NCBI GenBank assembly: GCA_963716175.1
Contig: OY970296.1
Location: 1,293,684 to 1,357,683 of the forward strand
DNA: 64,000 bases
DNA from: an uncultured Armatimonadetes bacterium
Lineage (GTDB): Bacteria > Armatimonadota > Hebobacteria > Hebobacterales > Hebobacteraceae
Reading direction: 5' to 3'
Positions 6,904 to 60,383 of the stretch are shown in pieces. How positions within the stretch are numbered: the first letter of the stretch is position 1; every line of letters starts with the position of its first letter. The notes beneath the pieces are model-generated. The model did no database searches, had not been told where the DNA came from, and was given only the letters and a program-made list of their open reading frames with translations. Made by a program: the position numbers and the translations under genes.

Positions 6904-6950
6904 CGGCGCGGTCCTATTCAGCCATTCATCAGGCCCTACCCCGGCACGGG

Positions 6951-7076
6951 CTAGAGCGCATTTCATAACCTACCGGCTGGCTGGCCGCACCACGCCCTCG
7001 CATGAAATGCGCCGGCCACGGCCTGACGTTGCGCAGTGCTGTTTCATAACCTCCCCTGGGAAGGTTATGAAACAGC
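6951..7076 (+). repeat. R1 structured repeat, copy 1 (126 bp, two hairpins).
   Basis: About 96% identical to 48215-48340. Hairpin 1 gcgcatttcat...atgaaatgcgc (11-bp stem, 35-nt loop). Hairpin 2 is the perfect palindrome gctgtttcataacct-cccctggga-aggttatgaaacagc. Confidence 0.85.
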
Positions 7077-7082
7077 TTCTAA

Positions 7083-23669: not shown

Positions 23670-24569
23670 ATGGCTGAAGGGGCTAGCGAGATGCGTTCCA
23701 CCTGGCGCAATAAGGTTGGCCTCGCCGAGATGCTCAAAGGCGGGGTGATCATGGATGTCACCACCGCGGAGCAGGCCAAGATCGCGGAGGAGGCGGGCGC
23801 GGTGGCGGTGATGGCGCTGGAGCGGGTGCCTGCCGACATTCGCGCCCAGGGCGGGGTAGCGCGCATGGCCGATCCCGTGAAGGTCAAGGAGATCATGGCC
23901 GCGGTCACCATCCCGGCGATGGCCAAGGCGCGCATCGGCCACTTCGCGGAGGCCCAGGTGCTGGAGGCGCTGGGCGTGGATTTCGTGGACGAGAGCGAGG
24001 TGCTGACTCCCGCGGACGAGCAGTTCCACATTGACAAGCACCTGTTCAGGGTGCCCTTCGTGTGCGGCTGCCGGAACCTCGGGGAGGCGCTGCGGCGGAT
24101 CGGGGAAGGGGCCGCGATGATCCGGACCAAGGGGGAGGCCGGGAGCGGCAACATTGTGGAGGCGGTGCGCCACATGCGCATGGTGCAATCCGAGATCCGC
24201 CGTCTCACCACGCTGCGCTCGGATGAGCTGATGACTGCGGCAAAGGAGCTGGGCGCGCCCTATGAGCTGGTGTGCGAGGTGGCGCGCTTGGGCAAGCTGC
24301 CGGTGCCGAACTTCGCCGCCGGCGGCATCGCCACCCCGGCCGACGCCTCTCTGGTGATGCAGTTGGGGGCAGAGGCCGTCTTCGTGGGCTCGGGGATCTT
24401 CAAGTCGAACGACCCGGCGGCGCGGGCGAAGGCGATCGTGGAGGCCACCACCTACTACGACAAGCCGGAGGTGGTGGCCCGGGTTTCGGCCGGGATCGGG
24501 GAGGCCATGCCGGGGTTGGATATAGCCAAGCTGGATGAGAAGGAGCTGCTCCAGACGCGAGGTTGGTGA
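23670..24569 (+). CDS. pdxS: Pyridoxal 5'-phosphate synthase lyase subunit.
   Basis: Near-canonical PdxS sequence ([24 protein letters not shown]...). Confidence 0.92.
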
Positions 24570-24619
24570 GCGCAATCGGGACGAACATGCCCCTGCCACC
24601 GAGGGGCCGCGAAATCGCC

Positions 24620-24635
24620 GGCGGGCATGCCCGCC
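24620..24635. repeat. 16-bp perfect palindrome GGCGGGCATGCCCGCC; its sequence matches the termini of R3 elements.
   Basis: Seen directly. The same GGCGGGCATG / CATGCCCGCC forms the ends of 35797-35920 and 57186-57282. Confidence 0.5.
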
Positions 24636-24655
24636 TTTGATGGCTTCTGACAAGC

Positions 24656-24862
24656 ATGGCAGACCGGAGGAACGACATGGTCGGAAGAGGCATTGCAGTC
24701 GCTGGCATCTGGGTTGGAGTGGGGATCGCGATCGGGCTGACCGGCGCCGCGCACCCCAATCTGCCGGGTTGGGTCTACAAATGGCTGCTGGTGAGCGCGG
24801 TGCTGGTGACCTGGCCCATCGTGTTGCCGCTGATGGGGCCGTGGTCGTGGGGGAAGGATTAG
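24656..24862 (+). CDS. Small hypothetical membrane protein.
   Basis: Two predicted TM helices; weak evidence. Confidence 0.3.
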   Translation: MADRRNDMVGRGIAVAGIWVGVGIAIGLTGAAHPNLPGWVYKWLLVSAVLVTWPIVLPLMGPWSWGKD

Positions 24863-34408: not shown

Positions 34409-35731
34409 TTACGCAGACGAACTGCTGGACTGGGTGCGCTGCAGCAAGAGCAAAGCGACCACGGCCGAGAGAGTGAGGAGGGCGGCGGCGAGGTAGAACG
34501 GAGAGCGGAGGTTCAAGTCCCACAGATAACCGCCTGCCAGGGGACCGAGGAAGGCCCCGGCACCTTGCGCGGTGGCCACCAACCCCATGATCCGACCGGT
34601 CGCGCCAGCAGGCGCCAGGTCAGAGACCAAGGCGAGCCAGGCGGGCAGACCGAGCATGAACCCGAGCATCACCAGCACGCCCGCCACCGCCAGTGGCAGC
34701 AGCGCGCGGCAGCACGGCAGGGCCCACAGAGCAGCTGCGCTGACGCAGAGGGCGAACTGGACCACGCGGCGCTTGGGCCAGCGATCGGCCAGATGGCCCA
34801 GCGGGATGCCAAGCAACCCGGCGGGTACGAAAAGGGCTACCAGCAGGAAGCCGACGCTCTCCCGGGGGATGTCCACCACTCTCTGCACATAGGGAGCGAG
34901 GTACGGGGCAAGGGTGCCGGTGGCGAACATCTCACTCAGGGTGATCAGCATGATGATGGCGATCACCCGCGCCCGGGGCCATCCCCCGGCCTGCGTGACA
35001 GGTCCTGCACCTTGGCGTGACGGTGCTTGCCCGTCTGCGGAAGCTTCGGCAGGCAAGCCGCGCGCCTGCTCGGCACGGGCAGGCAGGGTCGAGGCCACCG
35101 CAGCGCCAGCGGCGGCGGCGATCACCACCATCACGAAAGGGGCCCTGCTCTCAAAGCCGGAGGGCAGGCTGCTGGCCTGCGCCAGCCATCTCCATAGAGT
35201 CATGGCCGCGCCGGCGAGCGCGGGGCCGAAGGCGAGGCCGGTGAGGTAGGCGGTGTTCATGACGCTCATCGCCAGCCCGCGCTCGCGGCTGGGCACATGG
35301 TCCGGCACCCCGGCGAAGAGGGGCGGCCAGAAGGAGGCAGCGCCCGCGCCATCCACCGCCCGCAGGGGCATGAGCAGGAGGTAGATCAGCAGGGGGAGCG
35401 CGATGAGGACTCGAGGTGGCACCAGGCAGATGGCCAGGGCCGTGCTGGCCGACACGGCGATCCCCATGATCACGAAGGGCCGCCGACCATGGCGATCGGA
35501 GAGGTGGCCGAAGGGGAGCTTGAGCAGCATCTCGGCGATCAGGAACGTCGAGACCAGCAGACCGAGAGTGCGGCCCGGCTGGTGCAGGTCGTCGAGCATG
35601 TAGAAGGGCAAGGAGAAGTTGTTGACCGAGGACTGCACAATCTCGCCGAGCGCCACGACCAGCGCCATCCGGCCGAGCACGGGGTAGCGGCGGAAGACGG
35701 CGAGGTAGGTGCGGTGGAGGAGGTCGAGCAT
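34409..35731 (-). CDS. MFS transporter.
   Basis: 12-TM MFS pattern with GHLSDRHGRRP motif. Confidence 0.8.
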   Translation of the reverse strand: MLDLLHRTYLAVFRRYPVLGRMALVVALGEIVQSSVNNFSLPFYMLDDLHQPGRTLGLLVSTFLIAEMLLKLPFGHLSDRHGRRPFVIMGIAVSASTALAICLVPPRVLIALPLLIYLLLMPLRAVDGAGAASFWPPLFAGVPDHVPSRERGLAMSVMNTAYLTGLAFGPALAGAAMTLWRWLAQASSLPSGFESRAPFVMVVIAAAAGAAVASTLPARAEQARGLPAEASADGQAPSRQGAGPVTQAGGWPRARVIAIIMLITLSEMFATGTLAPYLAPYVQRVVDIPRESVGFLLVALFVPAGLLGIPLGHLADRWPKRRVVQFALCVSAAALWALPCCRALLPLAVAGVLVMLGFMLGLPAWLALVSDLAPAGATGRIMGLVATAQGAGAFLGPLAGGYLWDLNLRSPFYLAAALLTLSAVVALLLLQRTQSSSSSA

Positions 35732-35796
35732 GGGGTGCTAGTCTTCGACAGAGGGCCGGCCGGTCCTATGAGAAGGGACGCGGGCCGGGCCGGCAG

Positions 35797-35920
35797 GCGG
35801 GCATGCGGAGATGGCTAGGTCGCCTGGGCGACCGCTGGCTAAGCCCGCCTTCGGCGGGCCGCCATCCCGGCCTTCAGGCCTAGGGACATGGCGGCTCACG
35901 GCCTAGCCACATGCCCGCCC
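35797..35920 (+). repeat. R3 MITE-like element, copy X1, with terminal inverted repeats GGCGGGCATG...CATGCCCGCC and internal hairpin GGTCGCC-tg-GGCGACC.
   Basis: Shares gagatggctaggtcgcctg and ggcctagccacatgcc segments with 57186-57282. Confidence 0.7.
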
Positions 35921-35930
35921 TACAGGGCCC

Positions 35931-37392
35931 CTACCCCTTCATCACCCCCAGCGGCTTGAGCATCGCCACCATCTTCGAGATGCCGGCGCCGTGGCAGACG
36001 CGGACGACCTGGTGGACGTCTTTGTAGGCCTCGGGCATCTCCTCGGCCAGGCCCTCCCGGCTGGCGGCGCGGGCGTAGACGCCCTGGGCGGCCAGCTCCT
36101 GGGCGATGTCGCGGCCCCGGGCGGAGCGGATGGCGGCGTGACGGCTGAGCAGCCGGCCTGCGCCGTGGCAGGTCGAGCCCCAGGTCTGCTCCATCGCCTT
36201 CTGAGTGCCAACGAGAAGATAGGAAGCGGTTCCCATGTCACCAGGCACGATCACCGGCTGGCCGGTCTTCTGATGGAGCGGGAGAAGCTGGGGGTGGCCG
36301 GGGCCAAAGGCGCGCGTGGCGCCCTTGCGGTGGATGCAGAGCCGCTTCGTCTTGCCATCAACCGGATGCTCTTCGAGCTTTGCCACATTATGCGCGACAT
36401 CGTAGATGATCTCGAGGCCCAGCTTCTGCCGCGCCGGTCCCCAGCACGCGCTCGAAGGCCTCCCGGGTCCAGTGGGTGATGCACTGGCGGTTGGCCCAGG
36501 CGTAGTTGGCGGCGGCGGCCATGGCGGCAAGGTAGTTCCGTCCTTCCGGGGATGACACCGGGGCGCAGGCGAGCTGGCGATCGGGCAGAGAGATCTGGTA
36601 CTTCTGCGTCGCCTTCTGCATCTCGATCAGGTAGTCGTCACACACCTGATGGCCCAGGCCGCGGGAGCCGGTGTGGATCATCACCGTGATCTGATCCAGA
36701 TCGGTGATGCCCAGGGCGGCGGCGATCTCGGGATCGTGGATTTCGGCGACGGTCTGGATCTCCAGGAAGTGGTTGCCGGAGCCGAGGGTGCCGAGCTGGG
36801 GGCGGCCGCGCTCCTTCGCCCGGTCCGAAAGCAGGGCGGGGTCGGCGCCCTCGATGCGGCCATTGCTCTCGATGTGCTCCGCATCCTGAGACCAGCCCAT
36901 GCCCTGGGAGATGGCCCACTGCGCGCCTCTGACCAGCACGCGGTCGAGCTCGGCCTTGTCCACGCGCACCCGGCCCTTCTCGCCCACCCCGGAGGGCACA
37001 TCGCGGAAGATCTGGTCGATCAGGTCCTTGACGCGGGGCTCGACCTCGGCGCGGGTGAGGTTAGTGCGCAGCAATCGCACCCCGCAGTTGATGTCATAGC
37101 CAACGCCGCCGGGGGAGACCACGCCCTGCTCCACGTCGAAGGCAGCGACGCCGCCGATGGGAAAGCCATAGCCGTAGTGGATATCGGGCATGGCCATGGA
37201 GGGCCCCACGATGCCGGGCAGGCAGGCGACATTGACCACCTGCTCCAGGGAGTTGTCGGACTTGATGTCCTGCATCATCTCGGCCGAGGAATAGACGATG
37301 CCATCGGTGCGCATCTCCGGCTTGTAGCTGCGCGGGACGCGCCAGCGATAGGGATCTATGCGCTCGATTTTTCCGGACCAGGGCTTGCCCAC
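35931..37392 (-). pseudogene. rtcB: RNA-splicing ligase RtcB, split by a frameshift near 36420 at a G-run.
   Basis: N-terminal 334 aa and C-terminal 199 aa RtcB halves sit in different frames (GSGNHFLEIQ...; IIYDVAHNVAK...HRKGATRAF...GSTCHGAGR). Confidence 0.7.
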
Positions 37393-37457: not shown

Positions 37458-38147
37458 CTACATACTACGGGAGAGCACAGCGAAAGGCAAGGACGAGGGC
37501 CGCCGATGTGTGACCACGAAGATCAGAGAAGAGAACAAGCTGCTCCGGGAGAGCTGGTTGATCTCACCATAGCTCCAGGAGACCAGGTCCCCATTCCCCT
37601 CCTCCGCCCCGGTGGGGTTGTTCGCCGGGTCGTAGCTGTAGGTGAAGATGGAGATCACCGTCCCGTCCGACTTGCGGTTGCGCACCGCCTGGATTCGGCC
37701 GGCATCGTCGTATTGGGTCTCGGCGCGGCTGCTGTTGCCATAGGTCATGGTGGTGGGCCGGCCCAGGTCGTCGTACTGGTAGGTGCTCACCCCGCCGGTG
37801 CCGCGGTTCACCACCGCGGTTATCCAGTCGCGGGCATTGTAGCTGTAGTCAATGTAGCTGCCCGGCCGCGTCATCCGCGTCCGCCGCCCGCCGTCGTGAT
37901 AGGTGAAGCTCACCGTCACGCTGTTGGGATTCGTCGCCGAGGAGAGCTGGTTCCGCCCGTTGTAATCATAGCTGAACACGTCCTCTCCCGTGACCTGCAT
38001 GCTCGACACCAAGCCGACTCCGTTATACTGATAGGTCGTCGTCTTGGACGTCTCCGCACTCACCGTCACGGATTTCAGCCATTTACTCGGATAGTAGACC
38101 TGGGTCGTGGTGCCCGATGCATCCCGCGTCTCCGTGATTGCTGTCCC
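37458..38147 (-). pseudogene. Rhs/YD-repeat protein fragment (copy 1); no start codon, bounded upstream by in-frame stops.
   Basis: YQYNGVGL, YDYNGRNQL, YQYDDLGRPTTMTY, YSYDPANN repeats; positions 37497-38036 are duplicated at 38796-39437. Confidence 0.6.
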
Positions 38148-38174
38148 TGATTCCCCAGGACTGAGTGTTTCCTA

Positions 38175-38555
38175 TCACTTTCTCTTCACTAACCTGGCCA
38201 GCAGCAATGCTAATACTACCGGTATCCCTAGTAGCCCGGCCCAATAGCTATAGTCCCTCGGAAGGCGATATTTCAGCCACGGACCCATCAGAAGCGACGG
38301 AAGGAAAAAGGCCAGGTTGGTGATAACCGCTGCCCACAGGGGCACGACCAGCCCGCGGCCCTCCACCGCAGTCAACACATAGAAAGAACCAAGACCCGCC
38401 AGCTCCAGGAGGAGTCCCAGGTATGCAATGAACAGAGGCGTGTGCTCTGCAATCCAACGTGCTCCTGGAAGCCGCCATCCCTCCATAGCGAGTATGACCC
38501 AGAGCACGAGGAGTATCCCGAACGTCTCGGGTAGTTTCCGGCTACGCCGGCTCAT
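38175..38555 (-). CDS. Four-TM small membrane protein between the two Rhs fragments; possibly an immunity protein.
   Basis: Hydrophobic helices; position downstream of an Rhs C-terminal fragment. Confidence 0.35.
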   Translation of the reverse strand: MSRRSRKLPETFGILLVLWVILAMEGWRLPGARWIAEHTPLFIAYLGLLLELAGLGSFYVLTAVEGRGLVVPLWAAVITNLAFFLPSLLMGPWLKYRLPRDYSYWAGLLGIPVVLALLLARLVKRK

Positions 38556-38724
38556 AACGCCACACCGTCTGTCACACCAGCCCTTCTTCCTTCTCACTCA
38601 GCGGAGACACTTGCTACACTTTTCCATGCAATGCAGGGATTCGCCGGCTAGCAGCAGCGAACCGACCCCAGAGGCCGGCTCAGCCCAAGGGGCGATTTTC
38701 TCGGCCAGCCGAGGAACTAGGGCT

Positions 38725-39437
38725 TTAGAGTACCTCGCCCACGCCCTGAACCTTCTGTCCGTGAAGTGGTAACAGATTCTGGCGGTCCAGCGGGGGCCGC
38801 CGATGTGTGACCACGAAGATCAGAGAAGAGAACAAGCTGCTCCGGGAGAGCTGGTTGATCTCACCATAGCTCCAGGAGACCAGGTCCCCATTCCCCTCCT
38901 CCGCCCCGGTGGGGTTGTTCGCCGGGTCGTAGCTGTAGGTGAAGATGGAGATCACCGTCCCGTCCGACTTGAGATTGCGCACCGCCTGGATTCTGCCGGC
39001 ATCGTCGTATTGGGTCTCGGCGCGGCTGCTGTTGCCATAGGTCATGGTGGTGGGCCGGCCCAGGTCGTCGTACTGCTAATGAATGTCGCCCAAAGAAGTA
39101 ACGGGCGACATTCATCAGAAAGCCAGGGAATGCCTGAAGAAAGACGCTCGCGCAATGTTACTTCATTGCGCGAACGTCGGTAGGTACTCACCCCGCCGGT
39201 GCCGCGGTTCACCACCGCGGTTATCCAGTCGCGGGCATTGTAGCTGTAGTCAATGTAGCTGCCCGGCCGCGTCATCCGCGTCCGCCGCCCGCCGTCGTGA
39301 TAGGTGAAGCTCACCGTCACGCTGTTGGGATTCGTCGCCGAGGAGAGCTGGTTCCGCCCGTTGTAATCATAGCTGAACACGTCCTCTCCCGTGACCTGCA
39401 TGCTCGACACCAAGCCGACTCCGTTATACTGATAGGT
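38725..39437 (-). pseudogene. Rhs/YD-repeat fragment (copy 2), 5'-truncated and interrupted by a 105-bp R2 insertion.
   Basis: Near-identical to copy 1 except for the insertion at 39076-39180 and a divergent tail. Confidence 0.55.
39076..39180 (+). repeat. R2 paired-hairpin element, copy B, inserted into Rhs fragment copy 2.
   Basis: Absent from the otherwise identical copy 1 (gtcgtactg|gtaggtg). Hairpin 1 loop aaaGAAGTAAC; hairpin 2 loop GTTACTTC (exact reverse complement). Confidence 0.8.
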
Positions 39438-41490: not shown

Positions 41491-41909
41491 ACCTGCTACC
41501 CCCTAGCTGGACTGCACCCCTGGGCCTGGACAGAGCGGGGCAAGATGCGCCACCCTCTGATGAGGCGGGTTCGTGCTTCGCAGCGAAGCGCTCCTTCGCA
41601 GAGTAGCGTAGGAAACCACCTCGCTCTCGCCGCCGCCGGTGAGCTGCATGGTGGAGTGGCTAGACCTGCTGCGCAGGCCGCCATGGCGGTCTCTGACGGC
41701 GACATAGCCACCCAGGGCCTCCCCTCGACTCCGCTCGGGCCGGCCGTCACGGGAACCGGGGCCCGGCCGACGCGAATACTACGCTCACGCACAGGGAAAT
41801 ACAAGCACGGCTGCCGGCGCGCTGTAGCCGCCATAGCGCCTTAGGCGTAGCTATATGCCCGGCTCACGCCATGCAGCCCGGAGGACCCTCCTGAGGCGGG
41901 CAAGCCGGG

Positions 41910-41940
41910 CTCGCACAAAAGGGCGGGATGAATCCCGCCC
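41910..41940 (-). terminator. Rho-independent terminator downstream of the GT4 and manC/manB genes.
   Basis: Minus-strand read: GGGCGGGA-TTCA-TCCCGCCC followed by TTTTGTG. Confidence 0.65.
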
Positions 41941-44448
41941 CTACAGCTCGGCTTGCAGGCGCTGGATCTCCTGAGCGTATTGGTGCACCAGGGCGTCGGC
42001 GGTGGCCTGGTCGCGGCTCTCGGCGCGGACGTGGAAGACCGGGCCGGAGACATCGGGGAGCACCAGGGCCCAGCCCGCCGGGACGTGGATCTTGAGGCCG
42101 TCGAGCTGCTCCACGGAGAGGTCGCGGGTCTCCTCGTGCAGGCGTCTCATCACCAGGCCCTTCTGCTCCCAGGGGCAATCCACTTGCAGGTAGGCGCGGT
42201 AGTACCTGGGCACCCGCGCGCACACCTCGCCCAGCGTCTGACCGGTGACGGCGAGCAGCTCCAGCAGCTTGCCCAGGGCGAGCATGGCGTCGAACGCGGG
42301 CAGGAAGCGGGGGAAGATGAACCCGCCGTCAACGTCGCCGGCGAAGGTGAGCTCGGGATCGGTGCCGGCCGCCTCCATCAAGGAGCCGGCGTCGGCGCGG
42401 GTGCGGATGGCCTGGGCGTGATAGCGCTGGCAGACTTCCTCCACGCCGGAGGTGGCGCTGAACGGCACCGCGACCCGGGCGCCGGAGTCACCGCGCTGGA
42501 GCACCAGGTCCATGAAGCAGAGCAGCAGGTCATCGCTCATCACCCTGGCGCCGTGCTCGTCAACGGCGGCGAAGCGATCGCCGTGGCCGCCCACGAGGAG
42601 GCCGAGGTCGCCGTGCAGCGCGCGCACCACCTCGCCCAGCTCGCCGACGCGCTGCTCCCGCCTCACCCAGGCCTCGTGGGAGCGAGTGGGATCAACGAAG
42701 GCGTTGACCGCAGTGGACTCGCAGCCCAGGCGGCCCAGCACCAGGGGCATGAGCAGACAGAGGGGCCCGAAGGCGTAGTCCACCACCAGCTTGGGGGCGC
42801 GGCGGCGGATGGCGTCGGCGTCGAGGAAGTTGAGGAAGTCCTCGGTGTAGTACTCCACGGTGCGGCCCAGGAACTCGAGTCCTCCCACCGCCTCGCGCGG
42901 GGCGCGGCGGAAGTCCTGGCGAAAGAACATGTTCTCGATCTTGCGGGCGGCGGCGCGGGTGAGGTTCTTGCCACTGCCGTCGAAAAACTCAATCAGGGTC
43001 TGGGTAGGGTCCGAGGGCGACACTGAGACATGCACTCCGCCAGCCGCGCCCGAGATGTCCGCCATGTGGCGGGCGACGGCGCCGGGCATGGTGCGCAGGT
43101 CGAGCACATTGGCGCCTACCGACATCAACCCCGAGATCATGGCCCGCTTGACCATGCGGGAGGTGAGGTGGGAATCGCGGCTGGTGATCACCTGCGCGCC
43201 GGCCGGCAGGTAGGCCCCATAGGCGGCGGCCAGCCCGGCCGCGAACTCGGGGGTGATCTCCACATTGGCGAGGCCGCTGACGCCGCTGGCGCCAAACAGC
43301 GTGCCCGGCCACTTGGTCCCCCAGATCAGGCTCATGGTGACCTTGGAGCCGCGGTCGGTGACTTTGTCGGGCCAGATGCGGATATGGGGCATGACCACCG
43401 TGCCCTCCTCCAGCAGGCATCGGTCGCCCACCACCGCACCTTCATTGATGGTGACGTGGCGCTTGGCGACCACGTTGCGGCAGACGGTGGCGGCGTTGAG
43501 CCGGCTGCCCGCGCCCAGGTAGGTCCCGCTCCAGACCACAGAACGGGTCACCACGGCGCCGGCCTCGACTACGCAGTTATCGCCTATGATGGAGTAGGGG
43601 CCGATCTGCGCCTCAGCACCAATGCTGCAGCCATGGCCGATGAGCACCGGCGGCAGCAGGCGGGCGGCGTGATCAACCGCAGTGGCCCTGCCCACCCAGA
43701 CCCCGTCGGCCAACCTTTCGCCGGGGAGATCCACCGCCACCGCGGCTCGCAGGCAGTCGTGATTGGCGGCGCGGTACTGCTCGAGGTTGCCGACATCGGT
43801 CCAGTAGCCCTCGGCGACATAGCCGCAGAGGAGCTGGCCTTCATCCAAGAGGGCCGGAAAGAGATTCTGGCTGAAATCGAAGGGCCGCTCGGGGTTCACC
43901 CGGTGAAGCACTTCCGGCTCCAGGATATAGATGCCAGTATTGACCGTATCGGAGAACACCTCCCCAGCGCTGGGCTTCTCCAGGAAGTGGCGCACTCTGC
44001 CATCGGGATCGGTGATCACCACTCCGTACTCCAAAGGGTTGGGCACCCGTGTGAGCACGAGGGTGGCGGCGGCCCCCCGCTGTTGGTGGAACTCGATGGC
44101 CGGGCGGAGGTCGAAGTCGGTGAGGGCGTCGCCGCTGATGACGAGGAAGGTGCCGCCCAGTTTGTCCATCAGCCGACGCACGCTGCCAGCAGTGCCCAGA
44201 GGGATATCCTCGACCGCGTAGGAGAGCTGCATGCCCCACTCCGCGCCGTCCTCGAAGTAGCTCTCCACCTCATCGGCGAGATAGTGGAGGGTGGCGAAGG
44301 CCTGGGTGACCCCGAGCCGCGCTAGCAGTGACATGATGTGGGCCATGATGGGCCGGTTGGCCACCGGGGCCATGGGCTTGGGGAGATCACAGGTGAGGGG
44401 CCTGAGTCTAGCCCCTTCACCTCCTGCCATCACTACCGCTGGGATCAT
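41941..44448 (-). CDS. Bifunctional mannose-1-phosphate guanylyltransferase / phosphomannomutase (NTP-transferase + LbH + PGM/PMM domains).
   Basis: N-terminal GGEGARLRPLT nucleotidyltransferase motif; hexapeptide repeats; C-terminal PGM/PMM domains. Confidence 0.85.
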   Translation of the reverse strand: MIPAVVMAGGEGARLRPLTCDLPKPMAPVANRPIMAHIMSLLARLGVTQAFATLHYLADEVESYFEDGAEWGMQLSYAVEDIPLGTAGSVRRLMDKLGGTFLVISGDALTDFDLRPAIEFHQQRGAAATLVLTRVPNPLEYGVVITDPDGRVRHFLEKPSAGEVFSDTVNTGIYILEPEVLHRVNPERPFDFSQNLFPALLDEGQLLCGYVAEGYWTDVGNLEQYRAANHDCLRAAVAVDLPGERLADGVWVGRATAVDHAARLLPPVLIGHGCSIGAEAQIGPYSIIGDNCVVEAGAVVTRSVVWSGTYLGAGSRLNAATVCRNVVAKRHVTINEGAVVGDRCLLEEGTVVMPHIRIWPDKVTDRGSKVTMSLIWGTKWPGTLFGASGVSGLANVEITPEFAAGLAAAYGAYLPAGAQVITSRDSHLTSRMVKRAMISGLMSVGANVLDLRTMPGAVARHMADISGAAGGVHVSVSPSDPTQTLIEFFDGSGKNLTRAAARKIENMFFRQDFRRAPREAVGGLEFLGRTVEYYTEDFLNFLDADAIRRRAPKLVVDYAFGPLCLLMPLVLGRLGCESTAVNAFVDPTRSHEAWVRREQRVGELGEVVRALHGDLGLLVGGHGDRFAAVDEHGARVMSDDLLLCFMDLVLQRGDSGARVAVPFSATSGVEEVCQRYHAQAIRTRADAGSLMEAAGTDPELTFAGDVDGGFIFPRFLPAFDAMLALGKLLELLAVTGQTLGEVCARVPRYYRAYLQVDCPWEQKGLVMRRLHEETRDLSVEQLDGLKIHVPAGWALVLPDVSGPVFHVRAESRDQATADALVHQYAQEIQRLQAEL

Positions 44449-47815: not shown

Positions 47816-48342
47816 CGTCGCTCTCCCTGTGGCAGTGCCGCCACGGTCGCCTACCTGTTCGCTCCTCCCCGGCCAATTCCTTTCCCAACCCAGACCGGTC
47901 CAACCACCTCGTTCCCAGCCAGACCAGCCGACGTTGCTGGAGAAGGTCCGTCGTTCCCCAGAGGAGGTACAGGTCTTGTGGAGCCGAGAGTTGGGGATGG
48001 AGTAGTAGCTGTACTTAGAGAGATAATAATAATAATGATAAGGGCTGTGGATCAGGTGAAAACCACAGGGTAACCCGATGAAGTGGGCGGTTGTTATCCC
48101 CTGGCTGAAGAAGGAAGGCTGCGGATGGTTGTTGATAGAGTGAGCGGTGGCTAGCCGAGAGGTCCGGATTCCCGTGCCTGGCCCGGTGATGCACTTGTTG
48201 TCCACAGGCAAAGGCTAGAGCGCATTTCATAACCTCCCTGCTGGCTGGCCGCACCACGCCCTCGCATGAAATGCGCCTGCCACGGCCTGACGTTGTGCAG
48301 TGCTGTTTCATAACCTCCCCTGGGAAGGTTATGAAACAGCTG
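47816..48342. promoter_or_regulatory. oriC: oriC candidate in the dnaA-dnaN spacer.
   Basis: DnaA-box-like 9-mers TGTGGATCA (48046-48054), TTATCCCCT (48094-48102), TTGTCCACA (48197-48205). AT-rich tract gagataataataataatgataag at 48018-48043. R1 repeat copy 2 sits at 48215-48340. Confidence 0.55.
48215..48340 (+). repeat. R1 structured repeat, copy 2, within the dnaA-dnaN spacer.
   Basis: About 96% identical over 126 bp to 6951-7076. Confidence 0.85.
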
Positions 48343-49710
48343 CTAGCCTTCGGTACGGAGCCTGGCGCCCAGCTCGTTGATCAGCGCTTGCACAGAGCTG
48401 TCCTGCATCTGCTGTCTGATCTTGGTGCAGGCGTGAATGACGGTGGAGTGGTCTTTGCCCCCGAAAGCGCGGGCGATGCTGGGGAAGGAGGCACTAAGCA
48501 GCTCGCGGCAGAGGTACATGGCAATCTGGCGGGCATGGACCACGTCCTGGGTGCGGGTCCGCGCGACCAGCTCGGCGATGGTGAAGTTGAAGTGCTCGGC
48601 CACCAGTTGCTGGACGCGGCTGATGCTGAGGGGTTGTTGGTGGTCCTCGAGAGAGTGATCCCGGAGCTGCTCCGCGGCGAGGGAGAGAGTGATCTCGGCG
48701 TGGGTGAGAGAGGCGGCGGCCAGCACCTTGATGAGGGCACCCTCCAGCACCCGGATATTGGACTTCACCACCTTGGCGATATAGCGAAGGACCTCGTCCG
48801 GGACGGGGATGCTCTCCGCTTGGGCCCTACGGGCGAGGATGGCCAGTCGGGTTTCCATATCCGGCGGCTTGATATCAGCGATCAGCCCCCACTCAAAGCG
48901 AGAGCGGAGCCGGTCGTCCATGATCTGGAGGTCCTTCGGGGGGCGGTCGCTGGTGATGACGACCTGGCGGCCGGTCTCGTAGAGCGTGTTGAAGACCTGG
49001 AAGAACTCGGATTCGGTGCGCTCCTTGGCGGCGATGAACTGAATATCGTCCACCAGCCAGAGGTCCACCTCGCGATACTTCTTGCGGAACGTACCGAAGC
49101 GATCGTCCCGAATGGAGGAGACGACGTGAAAGGTGAAGGTATCGCCGGAGACGTACTGGACGCGAAGGCCGGGATGCTTGGCTGCGCTGTGATGGCCGAT
49201 GGCCTGCATGAGGTGAGTCTTGCCCAGGCCCACGCCGCCATAGAGGAAGAGGGGATTATAGGAGTCGCCGGGCTGGTTCGCGACCGCGAGCGCGGCGGCC
49301 TGAGCAAACTGATTCCCCTTGCCCACCACGAAGTTCTCGAAAGTGTACTTGGGATTGAGGGGAGTGGTGAGGAGGGCCTCGCTCTCACCGCGGGAGCCGG
49401 AGGCCGGGGGCCGCCTGCGGCGGGGCACCTGCTCTTCGAGGGCGAGGTCGAGCTGGGCGAGTTCGAAGTGCGCTTTCAGGGGTCGGCCCACCACTTGCTC
49501 GAGGGCGGCCTCGATGGCCTTGAGGCCATTCTTCTGGAGCCAGTCGCGCGCGAACTCACTGCCGACGGAAAGCTCGAAGGTGTCCTGACCGAGGACCTCG
49601 GGACGTACGTGCTTGATAGAACTCCCGAAAGAGGGGCGAGAAAGCTTGCTGCCCAGCGCCCTTAGCACCTGCTCCCACACCTGCTGCACCGACGGCTGCG
49701 ACTCCCGCAT
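48343..49710 (-). CDS. dnaA: Chromosomal replication initiator DnaA.
   Basis: AAA+ Walker A GGVGLGKTHL, Walker B LWLVDDIQF, C-terminal DNA-binding domain. Confidence 0.95.
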   Translation of the reverse strand: MRESQPSVQQVWEQVLRALGSKLSRPSFGSSIKHVRPEVLGQDTFELSVGSEFARDWLQKNGLKAIEAALEQVVGRPLKAHFELAQLDLALEEQVPRRRRPPASGSRGESEALLTTPLNPKYTFENFVVGKGNQFAQAAALAVANQPGDSYNPLFLYGGVGLGKTHLMQAIGHHSAAKHPGLRVQYVSGDTFTFHVVSSIRDDRFGTFRKKYREVDLWLVDDIQFIAAKERTESEFFQVFNTLYETGRQVVITSDRPPKDLQIMDDRLRSRFEWGLIADIKPPDMETRLAILARRAQAESIPVPDEVLRYIAKVVKSNIRVLEGALIKVLAAASLTHAEITLSLAAEQLRDHSLEDHQQPLSISRVQQLVAEHFNFTIAELVARTRTQDVVHARQIAMYLCRELLSASFPSIARAFGGKDHSTVIHACTKIRQQMQDSSVQALINELGARLRTEG

Positions 49711-51755: not shown

Positions 51756-53780
51756 CTACATGGGCAGTTCGAACGCCCTCGCCACGTACACCGCCATCTG
51801 GTCGCGAGTCACCTCCCGCGCGGGCTGATAGGTGCCGTCGTCATAGCCCTTCACCACGCCGTTATCCAGGCAGGCCTTGATCGCCACGCCCGACCAGAAG
51901 CCGGCCGGCACATCCGGGAAGAGCTGGGCGGCGGTGTCGAGGGCGTCAGTGAGCTTGACCCATCCCTTCGCGCGGGCGATGAACACGGCCATCTGGCCGC
52001 GGTCCACGGGATCGGCGGGGCTGTAGATGGTATCGGTGTAGCCTTTCACCACGTTGCTGCTGACTGCGTACTCCACATACCTGAACGCCCAGTGATCGGT
52101 CGCCACATCGGAGAACGTCGCGGTGGCTGGGCCCGTGGGCACGTTCGCATCCCCTTTCGCCAGCGCGCGGGAGATGTACACCGCCATCTGATCCCGAGTT
52201 ACGGGGTCGGTCGGCTTGTAGGTGCCGTCAGCGTAGCCCTTGACGATGCCTGCCGCACAGATGGCCTCGATCTCCCAGAGCGCCCAGTAGGGATCGGACG
52301 TCGAGGAGATGACATCCGAGAAATCGCTCGCGGGCAGCGACCACATGAGGCCCAGGTCTCCGAGCCATGGGTAGCTGTCTATCTGTGCGGTGACCACGTT
52401 GTTCGCCGGGTCAACCGTGGATGGCTTGCTGAAGTAACTGCGTGCCTCCGGGTCGTAGACGAACAGCGAAAGGTGAGCTTCCGCGGCCGCGGGGATTTCG
52501 GTGTCGTCATAGGTCATCGCCACGGTGATGGGACCGCTGACCTGCGCGGTGGTCTGCACATGGAAGAACGGCTCGACCGCCACTTGGTCTGGCCCCAGCG
52601 CCGCCGGGAACGCCTCCTCCCGGATGATGCTGGTCCAGCCCTCCTTGTCCACCTCTGAGAAGGTGACGCTGGTGTTGTCCACTGTCACCGCGGGGTGCGT
52701 CGAGGTGGTGTTCGGGCCCGCCCAACTAAGCCAGTTATCCCAATTCTCATCATAGGTGAGGCGGGTGAGCTGCCCGGTGTTAAGGTCATAGAGCCACACC
52801 TCGCGCTGGTACCAGCACATGGGGCCACTCGGATCGAACGGCAGGGCAGCGACGAAAGCGATCTGGTCGCCCAGCGGGGACCATTGCGGTCTCTGGGGGC
52901 CGACCATGTTCCGGATATCCGAGAGCCAGGGATGGTCGGCGGGCTGGAAGTTGTACTTGGCGATGTGGGCTTCGATATCGGAGTCCTTTAGGAACTGCTG
53001 CACAAGCACCTGCGGATGGCTGCCATCCGCGTTGGCCAGAACGAGCTGCCGCCAGACGCCGGACTCGCCGGAAACCGTATCAGACTGCTGCGTGGAATAG
53101 AGCAGCGCTGAGCCATCGCGCGACCACCTTGCATCCTGGTGGTCGGGGCCCGGGAGGATGCTGACATTGGCGCCAGTGACGTCCGCGGCTACACAACCCC
53201 CGCTCCCGTCGTCGCACAAGAGGCGGGATCCGTCTGGCGCCCAGCTCGGGAACCAGGTGGTGTAGGTCGCCTGGGGCATCCACTGGCGGAGGTTGGTGCC
53301 GTCGGCCGCCATCAGCCACACCTGGAAGCCCGCTTCGCACGTGACCTGCCCCACAGCAGGGGCGGCATGCTGGAAGGCGATAGTGCGGCCGTCCGGCGAC
53401 CAGGCCGCGATGCAGTTGACCCCGCCCAAGCCAGCCGGGCCTGTGAGGTTGACAGCGCCGGTCCCGTCCAGATTCGCCACCCAGATTTCGCCCGTATTGG
53501 CGTGGAACAGGTCGCTCGTGGTGCGGACGTCGTAAGCCACCTTCGTCGTGTCAGGCAGGCTCTCGCCATTGCCGAAGACGGTCTGAGGCGTCACCACCGC
53601 GTCCGAGGCGCCATCCATGATGTACCCGAGGGGAGCGCCGCTCTGATCCCAGCCCGAGACGAGCAGCTTCCCCTCGATCGGCACCCCCGCGGCGCGCGCG
53701 GGCGAAGGCATCGAGACCACGAAGGTGAGCCAGACGAATACCATCACGGCAGCGATTCGCCAGAGACTGCGAGCAGCCAT
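51756..53780 (-). CDS. Cell-surface protein with N-terminal signal peptide, TolB-like beta-propeller repeats and three C-terminal SLH domains.
   Basis: WSPDGRTIAF, WAPDGSRLLC, WSRDGSALLY, WSPLGDQIAF; three SLH repeats (KGY.DGTY.P...VTRDQMAVY). Confidence 0.8.
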   Translation of the reverse strand: MAARSLWRIAAVMVFVWLTFVVSMPSPARAAGVPIEGKLLVSGWDQSGAPLGYIMDGASDAVVTPQTVFGNGESLPDTTKVAYDVRTTSDLFHANTGEIWVANLDGTGAVNLTGPAGLGGVNCIAAWSPDGRTIAFQHAAPAVGQVTCEAGFQVWLMAADGTNLRQWMPQATYTTWFPSWAPDGSRLLCDDGSGGCVAADVTGANVSILPGPDHQDARWSRDGSALLYSTQQSDTVSGESGVWRQLVLANADGSHPQVLVQQFLKDSDIEAHIAKYNFQPADHPWLSDIRNMVGPQRPQWSPLGDQIAFVAALPFDPSGPMCWYQREVWLYDLNTGQLTRLTYDENWDNWLSWAGPNTTSTHPAVTVDNTSVTFSEVDKEGWTSIIREEAFPAALGPDQVAVEPFFHVQTTAQVSGPITVAMTYDDTEIPAAAEAHLSLFVYDPEARSYFSKPSTVDPANNVVTAQIDSYPWLGDLGLMWSLPASDFSDVISSTSDPYWALWEIEAICAAGIVKGYADGTYKPTDPVTRDQMAVYISRALAKGDANVPTGPATATFSDVATDHWAFRYVEYAVSSNVVKGYTDTIYSPADPVDRGQMAVFIARAKGWVKLTDALDTAAQLFPDVPAGFWSGVAIKACLDNGVVKGYDDGTYQPAREVTRDQMAVYVARAFELPM

Positions 53781-54091
53781 CGCACACCCCCTCTGCGCCT
53801 CGGCGCAAGTCCGAACATGTGACCCGCAAGGGCCCGCCGACTCCGTCCAGTATAGACCGTGGGCGGCGGGTATCGGCCGGAGGCCGTTACCCGCCCTCCA
53901 GTCACATCAGCAGGTCGAACGCCCGCGCGACGTAGACTGCCATCTGGTCCCGGGTGACCTCGCGCCCGGGCTGGTAGGTGCCGTCGTCATAGCCCTTCAC
54001 CACGCCGTTATCCAGGCAGGCCTTGATCGCCACGCCCGACCAGAAGCCGGCCGGCACATCCGGGAAGAGCTGGGCGGCGGTGTCGAGGGCG

Positions 54092-55891
54092 TCAGTGAGC
54101 TTGACCCATCCCTTCGCGGGCGATGAACACGGCCATCTGGCCGCGGTCCACGGGATCGGCGGGGCTGTAGATGGTATCGGTGTAGCCCTTCACGACCTTC
54201 TGGTCCACGGCGTACTGGACGTACTTCAGCGCCCAGTTCCCGGCTGGCACGTCCGTGAAGGTCGGCGTGCCGGTGAAGTCCGGCACGTTGCCGTCGCCGC
54301 CCGCCAGCGCGCGGGCAATGTAGGTTGCCATCTGGTCTCTGGTCACTTGTCCTGCTGGAGCATAGGTGCCGTCGGTGTAGCCGGCGACGATGCCGGCGGC
54401 GTAGGCGGCTTCGATCTCCCACAAGGCCCAGTAGGGATCGGCCGGGTCGGAGGACACGTCGGAGAAGTGGCTCGCCGGCAGCGGCCAGGAGAGGCCCATG
54501 GTGCCGAGGGCGGCCGGCTGGCCGGAGATCACATTGTTCGCGACGTCGCGGGTGACGGCCAAGTTCGTCCACTGGTCTGCCGCATCGTCGTAGCAGAGGA
54601 GCGCGAGATGACCCTGGGCAGTCGCCGGGACGTCCGCGTCCTGGTAGGTCATGGACACGGAGATGGGACCGGCAACCTGAGCTGTGGTGTGTATCTGGTA
54701 GAACGGCGCGGCTGCCAATTGGGGGGCCGGCAGTGCCGGCGGGCTGTCGTCCAAGATGATGGTGGTGAGGCCCGGCTCAGTCACTTCCGAGAAGGCAACG
54801 GTCGTGTTGTCCACCGTAACCTGGGGGCTGTCCGGGTAGGTGTTCTCTCCCTGCCAGCTCAGCCAGGTATCGAACTTCAGGTCGTTCGTGATCCTGGTGA
54901 GATCGCCGTCGGAGAGCGTGTAGATCCACACCTCGACCTGCTGCCGGTAGTCAGGCCCGTCCGGGTCGAACGGCAGCGCGGCCAAGAACGCGATGCGGTT
55001 GCCCTTGGGGGACCACTGCGGGAAGAGCGGCCCCGCCCACCACTCCAGGTCGGCCGCCCAGTCTCGCTCCGACGTGTCAAGCCCGAGTCGCGCCACCATC
55101 GCCTGGGCGTCCGAGTGGTTGACGAACTGACGCACCAGTGTCTGTGGGTTGTCGCCGTTGATGTCGGCGACGCGTAGCTCTCGCCAGACGCCTGGCTCGC
55201 CGTTCACGGTGTCCTCTTCAGCCCAGGTGCCGGCAACGTGGCGCGCATCGGGCGAAATGTCCGCCCCCTCCCCTCTCACATTTGGGAGGGTCTGGACGTT
55301 GCTGCCATCCAGGTCTATGAGCACTGCATTCGACTGCCCATAGACGGCGCAGATCAGACTGTGCCCGTCGGCCGACCAGCCCCCTACTTTGGGCGAAGCC
55401 ATCCCCACTGGACTCACGCGACGCGCGTTGCTGCCGTCGGCATTCATCACCCAGACCTCGAACCCCGTGTCACAGGGCTGCTGTCCCGGGACCGGGTCAA
55501 CGTGGCGGAAGGCGATCTGACTGGCGTCGGGTGACCAGGACGGGAAGCAGTTGATGCCGGAGAGGCCGGCCACCTGGCTCAGGTTGGTTTGGGTGGAGCC
55601 ATCGAGAGAGGAGAGCCAGATATCGCCGGACGTGGTCCACGGATCACCCGCTGTTAGCTGGTGGGCGAGCGCGTCTCCGAGCGGGGAGACATCCGCATGC
55701 TCGATCTCCGCGGGCCAGGCCGTGACCTGATCCGAACTCCCCTGCAGGTAGTAGGCATACGCGCTGATCTGCAACTCATAGCCCGATACCCACAGCTTCC
55801 CCTCGATAGGCACCGGGGCAGTGCCGGCCATCGCCGCCGACGCCCAGATGCAGCAGGCCACCACGATACACATCATCAGCATCGCGCGCAT
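54092..55891 (-). CDS. Paralogous SLH-domain beta-propeller surface protein.
   Basis: Same architecture as the first SLH propeller. The C-terminal SLH-coding DNA is near-identical to 51760-52060. Confidence 0.8.
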   Translation of the reverse strand: MRAMLMMCIVVACCIWASAAMAGTAPVPIEGKLWVSGYELQISAYAYYLQGSSDQVTAWPAEIEHADVSPLGDALAHQLTAGDPWTTSGDIWLSSLDGSTQTNLSQVAGLSGINCFPSWSPDASQIAFRHVDPVPGQQPCDTGFEVWVMNADGSNARRVSPVGMASPKVGGWSADGHSLICAVYGQSNAVLIDLDGSNVQTLPNVRGEGADISPDARHVAGTWAEEDTVNGEPGVWRELRVADINGDNPQTLVRQFVNHSDAQAMVARLGLDTSERDWAADLEWWAGPLFPQWSPKGNRIAFLAALPFDPDGPDYRQQVEVWIYTLSDGDLTRITNDLKFDTWLSWQGENTYPDSPQVTVDNTTVAFSEVTEPGLTTIILDDSPPALPAPQLAAAPFYQIHTTAQVAGPISVSMTYQDADVPATAQGHLALLCYDDAADQWTNLAVTRDVANNVISGQPAALGTMGLSWPLPASHFSDVSSDPADPYWALWEIEAAYAAGIVAGYTDGTYAPAGQVTRDQMATYIARALAGGDGNVPDFTGTPTFTDVPAGNWALKYVQYAVDQKVVKGYTDTIYSPADPVDRGQMAVFIAREGMGQAH

Positions 55892-56412
55892 ATCCCCCTC
55901 CGTTCTGCACATGCTTCCCCCGCGGCCCGGGGGGCGCCAGCCTGTGTCAGGCCGACCCGCCCATTATACCACTCGGCGCGGACGGAAGAGCGCACAATCG
56001 CAAGGTTTCTGGCTGCTAAGTGACGGTGGCAAGCCCCTGCCCGACCCGTGACAGCATCCGACCGCTGCGCGCCATACAGAGGCGGGGCAGCTACTGCTGG
56101 GCGCGCGCGGCTGGCCTTGCGGGAGGTGGGGTGGTGTGCTATACTCAGCCAGTCACGGCCCCGGCCCGTTTGGGCCGGGTGTCTTTCACTTAGAGTCTCT
56201 AACAGAACCGGCAACAATATCCACAGATGACGCAGATTACTCAGATTGATCTTGCGTCAATCTGCCGAATCTGCGGACTCATCTGTAGTTCCGTCAGAAG
56301 CTCTTAGAGGCCGCGAGCCGGCGGGCGTGTGAATGGCTAGGCCCTTCGGGCCGCCATGGCGGTCCGAGCAGTCGAACCTAGCCACGCCCGCCCTACAGAT
56401 TGGGAGGGTGGA

Positions 56413-56568: not shown

Positions 56569-56931
56569 GTGGAGCGTCTCCGCCGGAAAAACGACCTGGA
56601 CAGGGTGTTCCGCGAGGGCCGGCGGTTCTCTTGTCCCTGGGCTGTGCTGCAGGCGCGCGGGCGGACCGCCGAGGAGCAGCAGGCCGCGGGGCTGCGGGTG
56701 GCGGTGGTGGCGGCCCGCGGGTTCCCCACCGCGGTGGCGCGGAACCGAGCGCGGCGCCTGCTGCGGGAGAGCTGCCGCGTGGCGCTAGGGGAGGCGGAGG
56801 GCCGGTGGGACTTGGTGCTGGTTGCCCGACGAGAAGTGCTGAGCGTTCCCTTCGCGGCTCGGGTGGAAGCGTTGTCGGCCCTGCTGAGGGAGGCAGGTGT
56901 GCTTGGGGAGAAGGCAGCGGCGGCGGTATGA
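56569..56931 (+). CDS. rnpA: RNase P protein component.
   Basis: RnpA pattern (RLRRKNDLDRVFREGRRF... RNRARRLLRE). Confidence 0.85.
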   Translation: MERLRRKNDLDRVFREGRRFSCPWAVLQARGRTAEEQQAAGLRVAVVAARGFPTAVARNRARRLLRESCRVALGEAEGRWDLVLVARREVLSVPFAARVEALSALLREAGVLGEKAAAAV

Positions 56932-57302
56932 AGACCTCGGCGAGCGTCACCGGTGGTCTGGGGCGCGCCGCCCGCGCGGGCATTGCCCTGGTGCGGAGCT
57001 ATCAGCAGTGGATGAGCCACCTGAAGCCGCGGACCTGCCGCTATTACCCATCGTGTTCCCAGTACGCGGTGCGCGCCATCGCGGCGCGAGGCCTGATCCG
57101 GGGTGGCCTGCTGGCGGCCTGGCGCGTGCTGCGGTGCAACCCCTTCTCGGCCGGGGGATATGATCCGGGGCCGTGGGAGGCAGAGGAATCGGGCGGCGGG
57201 CATGCAGAGATGGCTAGGTCGCCTGCCGCGACCGCCGTGCCGGCCGAAGGCCTAGCCACATGCCGGCCCGACAGGGCCCGAGTGGGAGAGGGCGGCAGAT
57301 GA
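56928..57302 (+). CDS. yidD: Membrane protein insertion efficiency factor YidD, with a C-terminal extension encoded by an inserted R3 repeat.
   Basis: CRYYPSCSQYA...LRCNPFSAGGYDPGP core; the ORF then reads through 57186-57282 to TGA 57300-57302, which overlaps the yidC ATG. Confidence 0.7.
   Translation: MKTSASVTGGLGRAARAGIALVRSYQQWMSHLKPRTCRYYPSCSQYAVRAIAARGLIRGGLLAAWRVLRCNPFSAGGYDPGPWEAEESGGGHAEMARSPAATAVPAEGLATCRPDRARVGEGGR
57186..57282 (+). repeat. R3 MITE-like element, copy X2 (internally shorter).
   Basis: ggcgggcatgcagagatggctaggtcgcctg...ggcctagccacatgccggccc; aligns with 35797-35920. Confidence 0.7.
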
Positions 57303-59472: not shown

Positions 59473-59491
59473 CGCGGGCCGCATCCAGCCC

Positions 59492-60240
59492 ATGGACGAC
59501 CCCGTCGGCGAGGCCGAGCGATGGCGGCGGGCGCTGGTCGAGGGGGCCGGGGAGCTGGGCCTGTCCGTGTCTGAGGCGGAGGGCGCGGCCTATCGCAGAC
59601 ACTTCGAGCTGCTCCTGCTGCACAACCCGCGCGCCGGCCTCACCACCATCACCGACCCGGTGGAGATTGCGGTCAAGCATTTCCTGGACTCCCTCACCGG
59701 ACTGCTGGTGCGCGAGATCGCGGCTGGCGCGCGAGTGGCGGAGGTGGGATTGGGGGGTGGCTTCCCGGGGGTGGTGCTGGCGGTGGCCCGGCCCGCGGCC
59801 TGCTACACCCTGATCGAGGCGAATCGCAAGCGGGCGGCCTTCCTGTCGGATCTGATCCAGACGCTCGGCCTGCCCCAGGTGTCGGTGATCGCGGCGCGGG
59901 CCGAGGAAGTGGGCCAGCGTCCGGAGCACCGGGAGAGCTATGACCTGGTGGTGAGCCGGGCGGTGGCGCCGCTCCCGGTGCTGCTCGAGTACCGCCTCCC
60001 CCTGGCGCGGGTCGGGGGAGAGGCGCTGGCCTACAAGGGCCGCGAGGTGGAGGCGGAGATCGGCGAGAGCGCGGCGGCGCTCGCGAAGCTGGGCGGCCGG
60101 ATCGCGCGGCTGCGGCGGCTGTCGCTGCCCCAGGACATGGGGGAACGGGTGCTGGTATTAGTCGAGAAGTTGGCCTCCACGCCGGCCGCCTATCCGAGGC
60201 GGCCGGGCGCGGCGAGGAGGCGGCCGCTGGGCGGAAGGGA
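59492..60240 (+). CDS. rsmG: 16S rRNA (guanine527-N7)-methyltransferase RsmG. The ORF lacks a stop for another roughly 500 nt.
   Basis: RsmG motifs and typical C-terminal ...YPRRPGAARRRPLG. The downstream extension is low-complexity and overlaps the next gene, so the end is approximate. Confidence 0.65.
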
Positions 60241-60383
60241 GAGGAGGCAGCCAGGCGGCCGAGGAAGCGAGGGCGCAAATGGTGACAGGGCAGGAGGCAA
60301 GCGGCTAGGTCTTGCGGACCGCCGCCCCGGCCCGCGGAGCAGGCCTAGGGGCTCTTGCCCAGCGATCAGTGGGAGGCAATGTG

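Follow-up and report, generated by a model that had tools for sequence, protein, structure and literature searches.

A family of small, hairpin-rich palindromic repeats in a 64-kb bacterial window, with one copy read through at the 3' end of yidD

Here, we report that positions 35796-35925 and 57195-57274 of the DNA under study (the whole 64-kb stretch, called the window throughout) are members of a real family of small, hairpin-rich repeats that has at least five copies in the window. The family is of an ordinary bacterial kind; neither it nor its build of two modules that nests in itself nor its host lineage has a match in Rfam or, on a limited comparison with the literature, in publications. 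We propose, with a probability of roughly 60%, that it consists of non-coding, non-autonomous, REP/REPIN-like palindromic repeats made up of two modules, and not of MITEs of the TIR-plus-duplication type. The family, with a usable covariance model, is thereby added for a poorly studied lineage, apparently Armatimonadota.

Copies in the window

Copy 1 (35796-35925, plus strand) is a composite element lying between the stop of rtcB (35931) and the start of an MFS-transporter gene (35731), both on the minus strand. Its outer stem (35796-35805 and 35910-35919) is followed on the left by the bulge CGGAGA (35806-35811) and on the right by CTACAG (35920-35925), and its core (35812-35835 and 35887-35909, plus strand) is divided by copy 1b (35836-35886, plus strand; 48 bits, E 2e-10), a diverged 51-nt core (TGGCTAAG..CCGCCATCCCGG..CCTAGGGA) nested centrally within it. 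Copy 2 (57195-57274, plus strand; 74.8 bits) is a composite in the 3' end of yidD and consists of an outer stem (57195-57204), the bulge CAGAGA, the core (57211-57258), a right stem (57259-57268) whose arm CATGCCGGCC has one mismatch, and the degenerate tag CGACAG (57269-57274). By pairwise alignment, copy 1 equals copy 2 with 51 additional internal bases (35836-35886), and in the repeat comparison 35791-35826 pairs with 57190-57225 (92%) and 35889-35930 with 57238-57279 (86%). The two copies with inverted termini described in the initial annotation are therefore real, including the internal hairpin GGTCGCC..GGCGACC that it placed in both, but its copy 1 was off by one base (the first position is 35796) and the start that it gave for copy 2, 57186, has to be moved to 57195, or to 57190 if the extended similarity is counted.

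Further copies were found by a fuzzy search for the conserved boxes and by a covariance model (R1) built on the core of about 50 nt, with which four window cores score 48-75 bits. Copy 3 (56320-56398, plus strand; R1 55.9 bits) is a composite in the rpmH leader and comprises an outer stem with the arm GGCGGGCG (56320-56327), the bulge TGTGAA, the core (56334-56384), the second outer arm (56385-56392) and CTACAG (56393-56398); the ribosome-binding site and GTG start of rpmH lie within about 20 nt 3' of it. The best R1 strand of its core is minus, so that this core is flipped relative to those of copies 1 and 2. Copy 4 (41657-41710, minus strand; 54 bits, E 6e-12) is an intergenic core with one hairpin decayed and no GGCGGGCATG stem. 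Copy 5 (60298-60355, plus strand; 26.3 bits, E 1e-4), with the degenerate core CGGCTAGG..CCGCCGCCCCGG..CCTAGGGG, is probably a degenerate member of the family; it lies in a 0.9-kb gene-free stretch after jag and is conserved in the strain contig L020. Copies 3, 1b and 5 had been missed earlier, and the degenerate relative once suspected at 41824-41905 is not borne out, as R1 gives only 9.4 bits (E 2.8) at 41804-41857, the true copy at 41657-41710 sitting 115-170 nt upstream of that candidate. Neither promoters nor terminators were called inside the elements when the surroundings of copies 1 and 3 were scanned.

The long words shared by the copies are far more frequent than shuffling would give. 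The window has two exact matches to the 17-mer GAGATGGCTAGGTCGCC, and three matches if up to 3 mismatches are allowed (0.34 expected from shuffling), while the right-arm 20-mer has two matches (0.03 expected from shuffling). All six occurrences of TGGCTAGG in the window are arms of copies 1-3.

Neighbouring features

Pfam confirms rnpA, yidD, yidC, rtcB, the MFS transporter and pdxS in the window. Beside copy 1, rtcB (35934-37392, minus strand) is split into overlapping frames, with RtcB residues 1-268 in 36388-37392 and 267-426 in 35934-36530; this is either a frameshift, a pseudogene or a sequence error. Farther on, 37458-39437 holds duplicated fragments of an RHS/YD-repeat gene (288-nt and 259-nt repeats, 98-100% identical) in a stretch of lower GC content (37.4-41.9 kb). 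An unrelated intergenic repeat of 139 nt is present at 6943-7081 and 48207-48345 (95% identical), each copy of which contains a 39-nt near-perfect palindrome, GCTGTTTCATAACC...GGTTATGAAACAGC.

Upstream of rpmH, a GC-rich hairpin is followed by TCTTTCACTTAGA (56160-56192; TGATTCACTTGGA in the relative L070), an arrangement also found in L068 and L070, which may be a leader or promoter-proximal element. In L070, dnaA lies divergently upstream of the rpmH operon, and in L068 a gene of 467 aa intervenes. In place of dnaA, the window has a pair of paralogues encoding 606 and 674 aa (repeats D2/D4; 51756-55912 and 55913-56320), and hence synteny is broken beside copy 3. At the other end of the operon, about 0.9 kb between jag and the next gene (59473-60383) is devoid of called genes, and strain differences are clustered within it at 59920-59998.

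Two modules

What is conserved is an inner core of some 50 nt, which in an alignment of the metagenome members reads TGGCTAGG, hairpin, CCGCCATGGCGG, hairpin, CCTAGCCA(C), hairpin 1 commonly being TCGCC-loop-GGCGA and hairpin 2 being CC-loop-GG. It is an inverted pair of box-plus-hairpin units arranged about CCGCCATGGCGG, in keeping with the REP and REPIN trait of a short imperfect palindrome (20-40 bp) or an inverted dimer of such palindromes. Its boxes contain CTAG, and the core itself carries no GTAG tag. CTAG is strongly depleted in the window as a whole (53 observed, 114-195 expected), 10 of the 53 sites falling inside repeat copies.

The outer module is a hairpin with the consensus GGCGGGCRTG...CRYGCCCGCC, in whose loop the core sits and which is flanked on one side by an unpaired CTAC(AG), equivalent to GTAG on the opposite strand. 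Copies 1, 2 and 3 have this module, as do several of the metagenome copies; its stem is 8-10 bp long, the arms measuring 10 bp in copies 1 and 2 and 8 bp in copy 3. The 10-bp inverted stem GGCGGGCATG/CATGCCCGCC with a one-sided tag (CTACAG in copy 1) is common to copies 1 and 2, GGCGGGCATG arms being limited to one subfamily and termini of that type being absent from copy 4, copy 1b and the members in L037, L043 and L055. The outer stem has CTACAG after it in copies 1 and 3 and CTAC in L039, L058, L026 and L059; the tag is degenerate in copy 2 (CGACAG), L032 (CTAT) and L060 (TCAC) and is absent beside core-only copies. The core of copy 3 faces the opposite way, with respect to stem and tag, from the cores of copies 1 and 2; the modules are therefore separable. 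The elements are non-coding and multi-copy, and their 50-130 nt also suit a MITE, for which the size limit is about 500 bp.

Distribution outside the window

An exact 17-mer scan of metagenome data gave 43 hits, 15 of them with the whole core and the remainder chance matches. About nine further loci were found in GC-rich metagenome contigs, whose cores score 68-78 bits with R1. In genome contigs, among which the source genome is not included, the same scan gave 17 hits, all of them by chance and in unrelated taxa. Plasmids and phage genomes yielded no BLAST match to the element, and a six-frame (concatenated) peptide query for element copies within called ORFs found nothing significant. The strain contigs L020-L022 are 98.3% identical to the window and have the yidD copy.

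A strong member (75.5 bits) was observed at 542-597 of L067, an IMG/VR contig of 66% GC, from which the repeat may occur in phage or prophage DNA as well. In L043 (6064-6333 and 11236-11291), L037 (1-250) and L055 (1991-2158), cores are embedded in another palindromic repeat, CTGTCAYYSCGAG...CTCGGGGTGACAG, which forms composites of 170-250 nt with two cores that are common to unrelated contexts in GC-rich contigs. Purifying selection on the core was considered from L043 and L055 and rejected, since these contigs share only the repeat of about 170 nt and their flanks are not orthologous.

The copy in yidD

The yidD gene (56928-57302, plus strand) encodes 124 aa, of which only residues 18-80 make up the Pfam YidD domain, and its stop overlaps the start of yidC (57299-58702, plus strand; 467 aa with a lipoprotein-type signal), the yidD TGA lying inside an ATGA shared with the yidC ATG at 57299. 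The YidD and YidC products are each an exact match to database proteins. As first described, the element is read through at the 3' end of yidD in a frame that stays open to this TGA; the number of element-encoded residues, put at about 35, comes down to about 27 (G90 to approximately R116), or at most 31 if the extended similarity is included. Of the three plus-strand frames through copy 2, only that of yidD is open, the other two being stopped by TAG within the boxes. Because the insert occupies the only stop-free frame, the ancestral ATGA overlap of the yidD stop and yidC start is preserved. The arrangement is in-frame in the manner of a Rickettsia palindromic element, with the domain ending at residue 80, the insert beginning at residue 90 and the frame open to the ATGA.

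YidD relatives are 57-72% identical overall to the protein of the window, the two closest reaching 84-85% across the conserved region; their tails are short and mutually unalike, and their yidD-yidC junctions keep the ATGA overlap with the element absent. When the yidD C-terminus and the yidD-yidC junction were compared in this way, as the initial annotation had suggested, R1 had no hit at either the junction or the rpmH leader in L001, L002, L068 and L070. A weak resemblance in the YidD tail of L001 (GAGGGCCTTCCAACGG compared with GAAGGCCTAGCCACATG) was entertained as an element remnant and dropped, R1 finding no hit there.

Between the window and L020, 7 substitutions fall within 39 nt of the yidD copy, a cluster among the densest in 5.4 kb (overall divergence 1.7%); six of the seven are non-synonymous, and two disrupt base pairs in the outer box helix. 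Hence neither peptide nor fold is maintained at the yidD copy, and the peptide added to YidD is not under selection. We infer that the insert is tolerated because it lies beyond the domain and translational coupling is kept. It explains why YidD has 124 aa instead of about 93 aa and flags the tail as non-functional sequence, and it offers a natural example of a selfish palindrome tolerated at the 3' end of a gene with coupling to the essential yidC kept. Removing 57195-57275 (81 nt, 27 codons) would leave a perfect in-frame palindrome, TCGGGC|GCCCGA. As a palindromic target this is suggestive; it was set aside as one case only, the other copies being without such flanks.

Boundaries, presence and absence

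The origin regions of two relatives (20 kb each) contain no copy at all, and their rpmH leaders are shorter. At the strain level, L051 matches the window at 98.4% identity over the MFS gene and the left portion of copy 1; in place of the nested 51-nt core of the window it has GCGACCGC-CATGGCGGC, with no target duplication. This single clean filled/empty pair comes from a metagenome contig and fits deletion and insertion alike. The nested core differs from the host core in its boxes as well as in hairpin 1, and is thus derived from another copy and not by self-duplication. Otherwise unrelated contigs share only the composite, 76-80 nt long (L039 with L058, L060 with L058), and copies consisting of the core only sit in differing flanks in L037, L043, L055 and at copy 4. 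The comparisons bearing on mobility are all drawn from metagenome contigs.

Target-site duplications, which the initial annotation had proposed looking for beside the copies, are absent: direct repeats flank none of the copies, nor do they appear in the comparison of the window with L051. In addition, no flanking target oligonucleotide is conserved at the cores, unlike in IS200/IS605.

Two breaks in homology were observed beside copies. In L051 (1-1370; this strain contig is 98.4% identical to positions 34728-35835 of the window), an insertion sequence of the IS5 family (DUF4096 and DDE_Tnp_1, in two frames) interrupts the right box of copy 1 at its CTAG, and so the CTAG sites of the repeat may be targets for insertion sequences. 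In L020, homology of 1-95 to window 56240-56333 ends exactly at the left edge of the copy 3 core, which is either a rearrangement or insertion breakpoint or an assembly artefact.

Folding at the DNA or RNA level

The core is a near-palindrome, either strand of which can be folded into a three- or four-way junction; RNAalifold offers two tandem hairpins as an alternative. Across the alignment, 90-92% of the cells are paired, the hairpin loops vary in sequence and length, and hairpin 1 shows a few compensatory changes. Folding z-scores go down to -3.2 as RNA and -3.9 as DNA, both strands folding about equally. Mismatches of the G.U type and of the A.C type both occur in the alignments, and the core is oriented plus relative to transcription in copy 2 and minus in copies 3 and 4. 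Together, the mixed mismatch types and the two orientations favour a palindrome acting at the DNA level; the repeat may also have a secondary role in transcripts. Rfam gave nothing at gathering thresholds for the window and 11 loci, and chance-level hits only at E up to 5, and ARAGORN made no tRNA-like call. An integron attC site or tRNA-like gene was rejected as a candidate, inspection finding no GTTRRRY/RYYYAAC boxes and ARAGORN no tRNA.

The palindrome at 24620 and a terminator-like hairpin

The perfect 16-nt palindrome GGCGGGCATGCCCGCC (24620-24635) that had been pointed out downstream of pdxS is present, 50 nt from that gene, and it does equal the two outer arms joined through one shared CATG. 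The 10-mer of the outer arm is commoner in the window than expected (6 against 0.8), and perfect palindromes of at least 16 nt are not unusual there (4 against 2.3 expected). A terminator scan of 24400-24800 found none, the palindrome having no T-run (its tail is TTTGATGG) and no CTAC tag. It may be an unoccupied core-hosting hairpin, an excision product or a coincidence.

A hairpin with CTACAG at 41921-41946 (GGGCGGGAT..ATCCCGCCC) resembles the outer stem and tag of the repeat and was tried as a solo relative. It is better read as a terminator, as it comes directly after the TAG stop of a minus-strand gene (41941-44448) and is followed by TTTTGTG on the minus strand.

Discussion

In light of these observations, how might the family have come to its present sites? 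On the REP/REPIN-like reading, module 1 would be the quasi-palindromic core of about 50 nt, folding as a three- or four-way junction, and module 2 the GC-rich, GTAG-tagged hairpin that holds the core in its loop. The composite of about 80 nt and the core alone would each have inserted at new sites, or have been precisely excised, without target-site duplication, with a tendency to settle in palindrome loops, among them that of the central CCGC-CATG-GCGG hairpin of the core itself. Such movement may be transposition as in HUH/RAYT or IS200/IS605 systems, with single-stranded DNA and recognition of hairpins, by an enzyme not seen here; a gene for RAYT or another Y1/HUH transposase was not noticed among the ORFs examined in the window and L051. 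The yidD copy would then be a tolerated insertion that landed after the YidD domain, and its extension is best read as a neutral by-product that preserves the coupling to yidC. Counting against a REP-like nature is the combination of conserved boxes and variable loops, which would also be seen in a sequence selected for its function, for example as a binding site for a protein or as a structured RNA. That the family has two modules and nests in itself hints at the targeting of hairpin loops, which, if confirmed genome-wide, would bear on the way in which REP-like elements spread.

A bolder proposal, which we consider unlikely while still deserving attention, is that the 50-nt core is a new minimal form of mobile DNA: a self-folding four-way junction that would insert and precisely excise without duplication in the loops of GC-rich hairpins (those of REPs and its own central hairpin), be moved by a putative hairpin-recognising enzyme, and mark sites of strain rearrangement and of insertion sequences. 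The breakpoints in L020 and L051 do fall at core edges.

Other explanations have to be weighed against the REP/REPIN-like one. The repeat could be a functional structured RNA, or a cis element acting on mRNA processing or stability, in operons such as rpmH-rnpA-yidD-yidC-jag, with the junction under selection. Three of the five window copies are indeed in or beside that one operon in a transcribed strand region, stems are conserved and loops variable with some G.U and compensatory changes, and the z-scores quoted above (to -3.2 for RNA, -3.9 for DNA) are low. We nevertheless find this rather unlikely: Rfam has no match even at permissive thresholds, the orientation to transcription differs (plus in copy 2, minus in copies 3 and 4), copy 1 has a minus-strand gene on either side, one copy is translated, strain variants have stem-breaking changes, G.U-type and A.C-type mismatches are both found with neither strand favoured, and the orthologous leaders and junctions of relatives work without the element. 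Less probable still is the classical MITE, a deletion derivative of an insertion sequence with a DDE transposase, mobilised in trans by cut-and-paste through its 10-bp TIRs GGCGGGCATG/CATGCCCGCC. The initial description of a MITE-like element holds insofar as the repeats are small, non-coding, multi-copy and, in copies 1 and 2 and several metagenome copies, bounded by 10-bp inverted termini near which similarity between unrelated contigs stops. It fails on the lack of a target-site duplication at any copy or in the filled/empty comparison, and on conservation, which is that of the core and not of the termini, many members keeping the core without them. Furthermore, CTACAG (GTAG when read on the opposite strand) stands on one side only, an asymmetry that recalls REPs and not MITEs; copy 3 has its core inverted between the termini; and the only insertion sequence near a copy, the IS5-family one in L051, has unrelated ends.

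That the elements are dispersed sites for a host DNA-binding protein dimer on the TGGCTAGG/CCTAGCCA and CCGCCATGGCGG boxes, like the IHF and gyrase sites in BIMEs, and have been spread by recombination, would agree with three boxes conserved in dyad symmetry around variable hairpins and with a strand-symmetric element. We hold it to be very improbable, as it leaves the clean 51-nt indel, the self-nesting and the in-frame yidD copy unexplained and relatives have no such sites at orthologous positions; to our knowledge, there is no candidate binding protein. Chance similarity among GC-rich palindromes deserves next to no weight. The genome has 67% GC, and perfect palindromes of at least 16 nt are about as frequent as expected, but the long exact words shared by the copies are far above the shuffle expectation, R1 scores reach 75 bits and the same core recurs at about nine independent metagenome loci. 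Chance is thus refuted for the family and possible only for the palindrome at 24620.

Comparison with known systems

Mycobacterial interspersed repetitive units (MIRUs) are small repeats between the genes of operons whose reading-frame ends overlap neighbouring stop and start codons, so that translational coupling is kept. They consist of direct tandem units of 40-100 bp and are not palindromes. Unlike in MIRUs, the open frame described here is an extension of yidD itself.

Rickettsia palindromic elements (RPEs) are the best-known in-frame palindromic inserts in genes (PMC10969869). Compared with them by description, the yidD copy is likewise a palindromic repeat in frame within a gene, where it adds a peptide and does not destroy the protein. 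RPEs are AT-rich, about 100-150 bp long and often internal to genes, and their peptide is conserved within each family, whereas only one of the five window copies is genic; it occupies the very C-terminus, where the peptide it encodes is unconserved from strain to strain. Correia/NEMIS and ERIC elements are also small and multi-copy with terminal inverted repeats, are co-transcribed with their neighbours and are able to nest, as the window family does (PMC10969869). Correia elements have a TA duplication and IS-like termini (PMC10969869), in contrast to the present family, which has no duplication, a one-sided tag and a core independent of the termini.

The GTAG-tagged REPs, as covered by the parts of Di Nocera et al. 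(2013; PMC3733652) drawn on here, provide the remaining comparison. The window family departs from them in that its conserved 50-nt core has CTAG boxes and exists also without the GTAG hairpin, and in that the insert in the loop is 54-110 nt long, compared with the 2-27 nt of the loops described in those parts. Its host phylum, apparently Armatimonadota, is not found among the phyla that they name. The same parts report that GTAG-tagged REPs can have complex self-complementary loops and form inverted dimers, that REPs lie inside small GC-rich palindromes (as with GTAG-23 of Thermomicrobium roseum), and that intragenic REP dimers encode 20-30 aa, often at C-termini (PMC3733652). The outer stem of the window family, with 8-10 bp, falls within the REP range of 5-13 bp given there. 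As in the GTAG REPs and REPINs of that account (PMC3733652), the window family has, in copies 1 and 3 and some metagenome members, a GC-rich stem-loop with an unpaired terminal GTAG (here CTAC on the plus strand), lies mostly between genes and often just 3' of them, forms inverted dimers that build larger folds, and is inserted with no target-site duplication.
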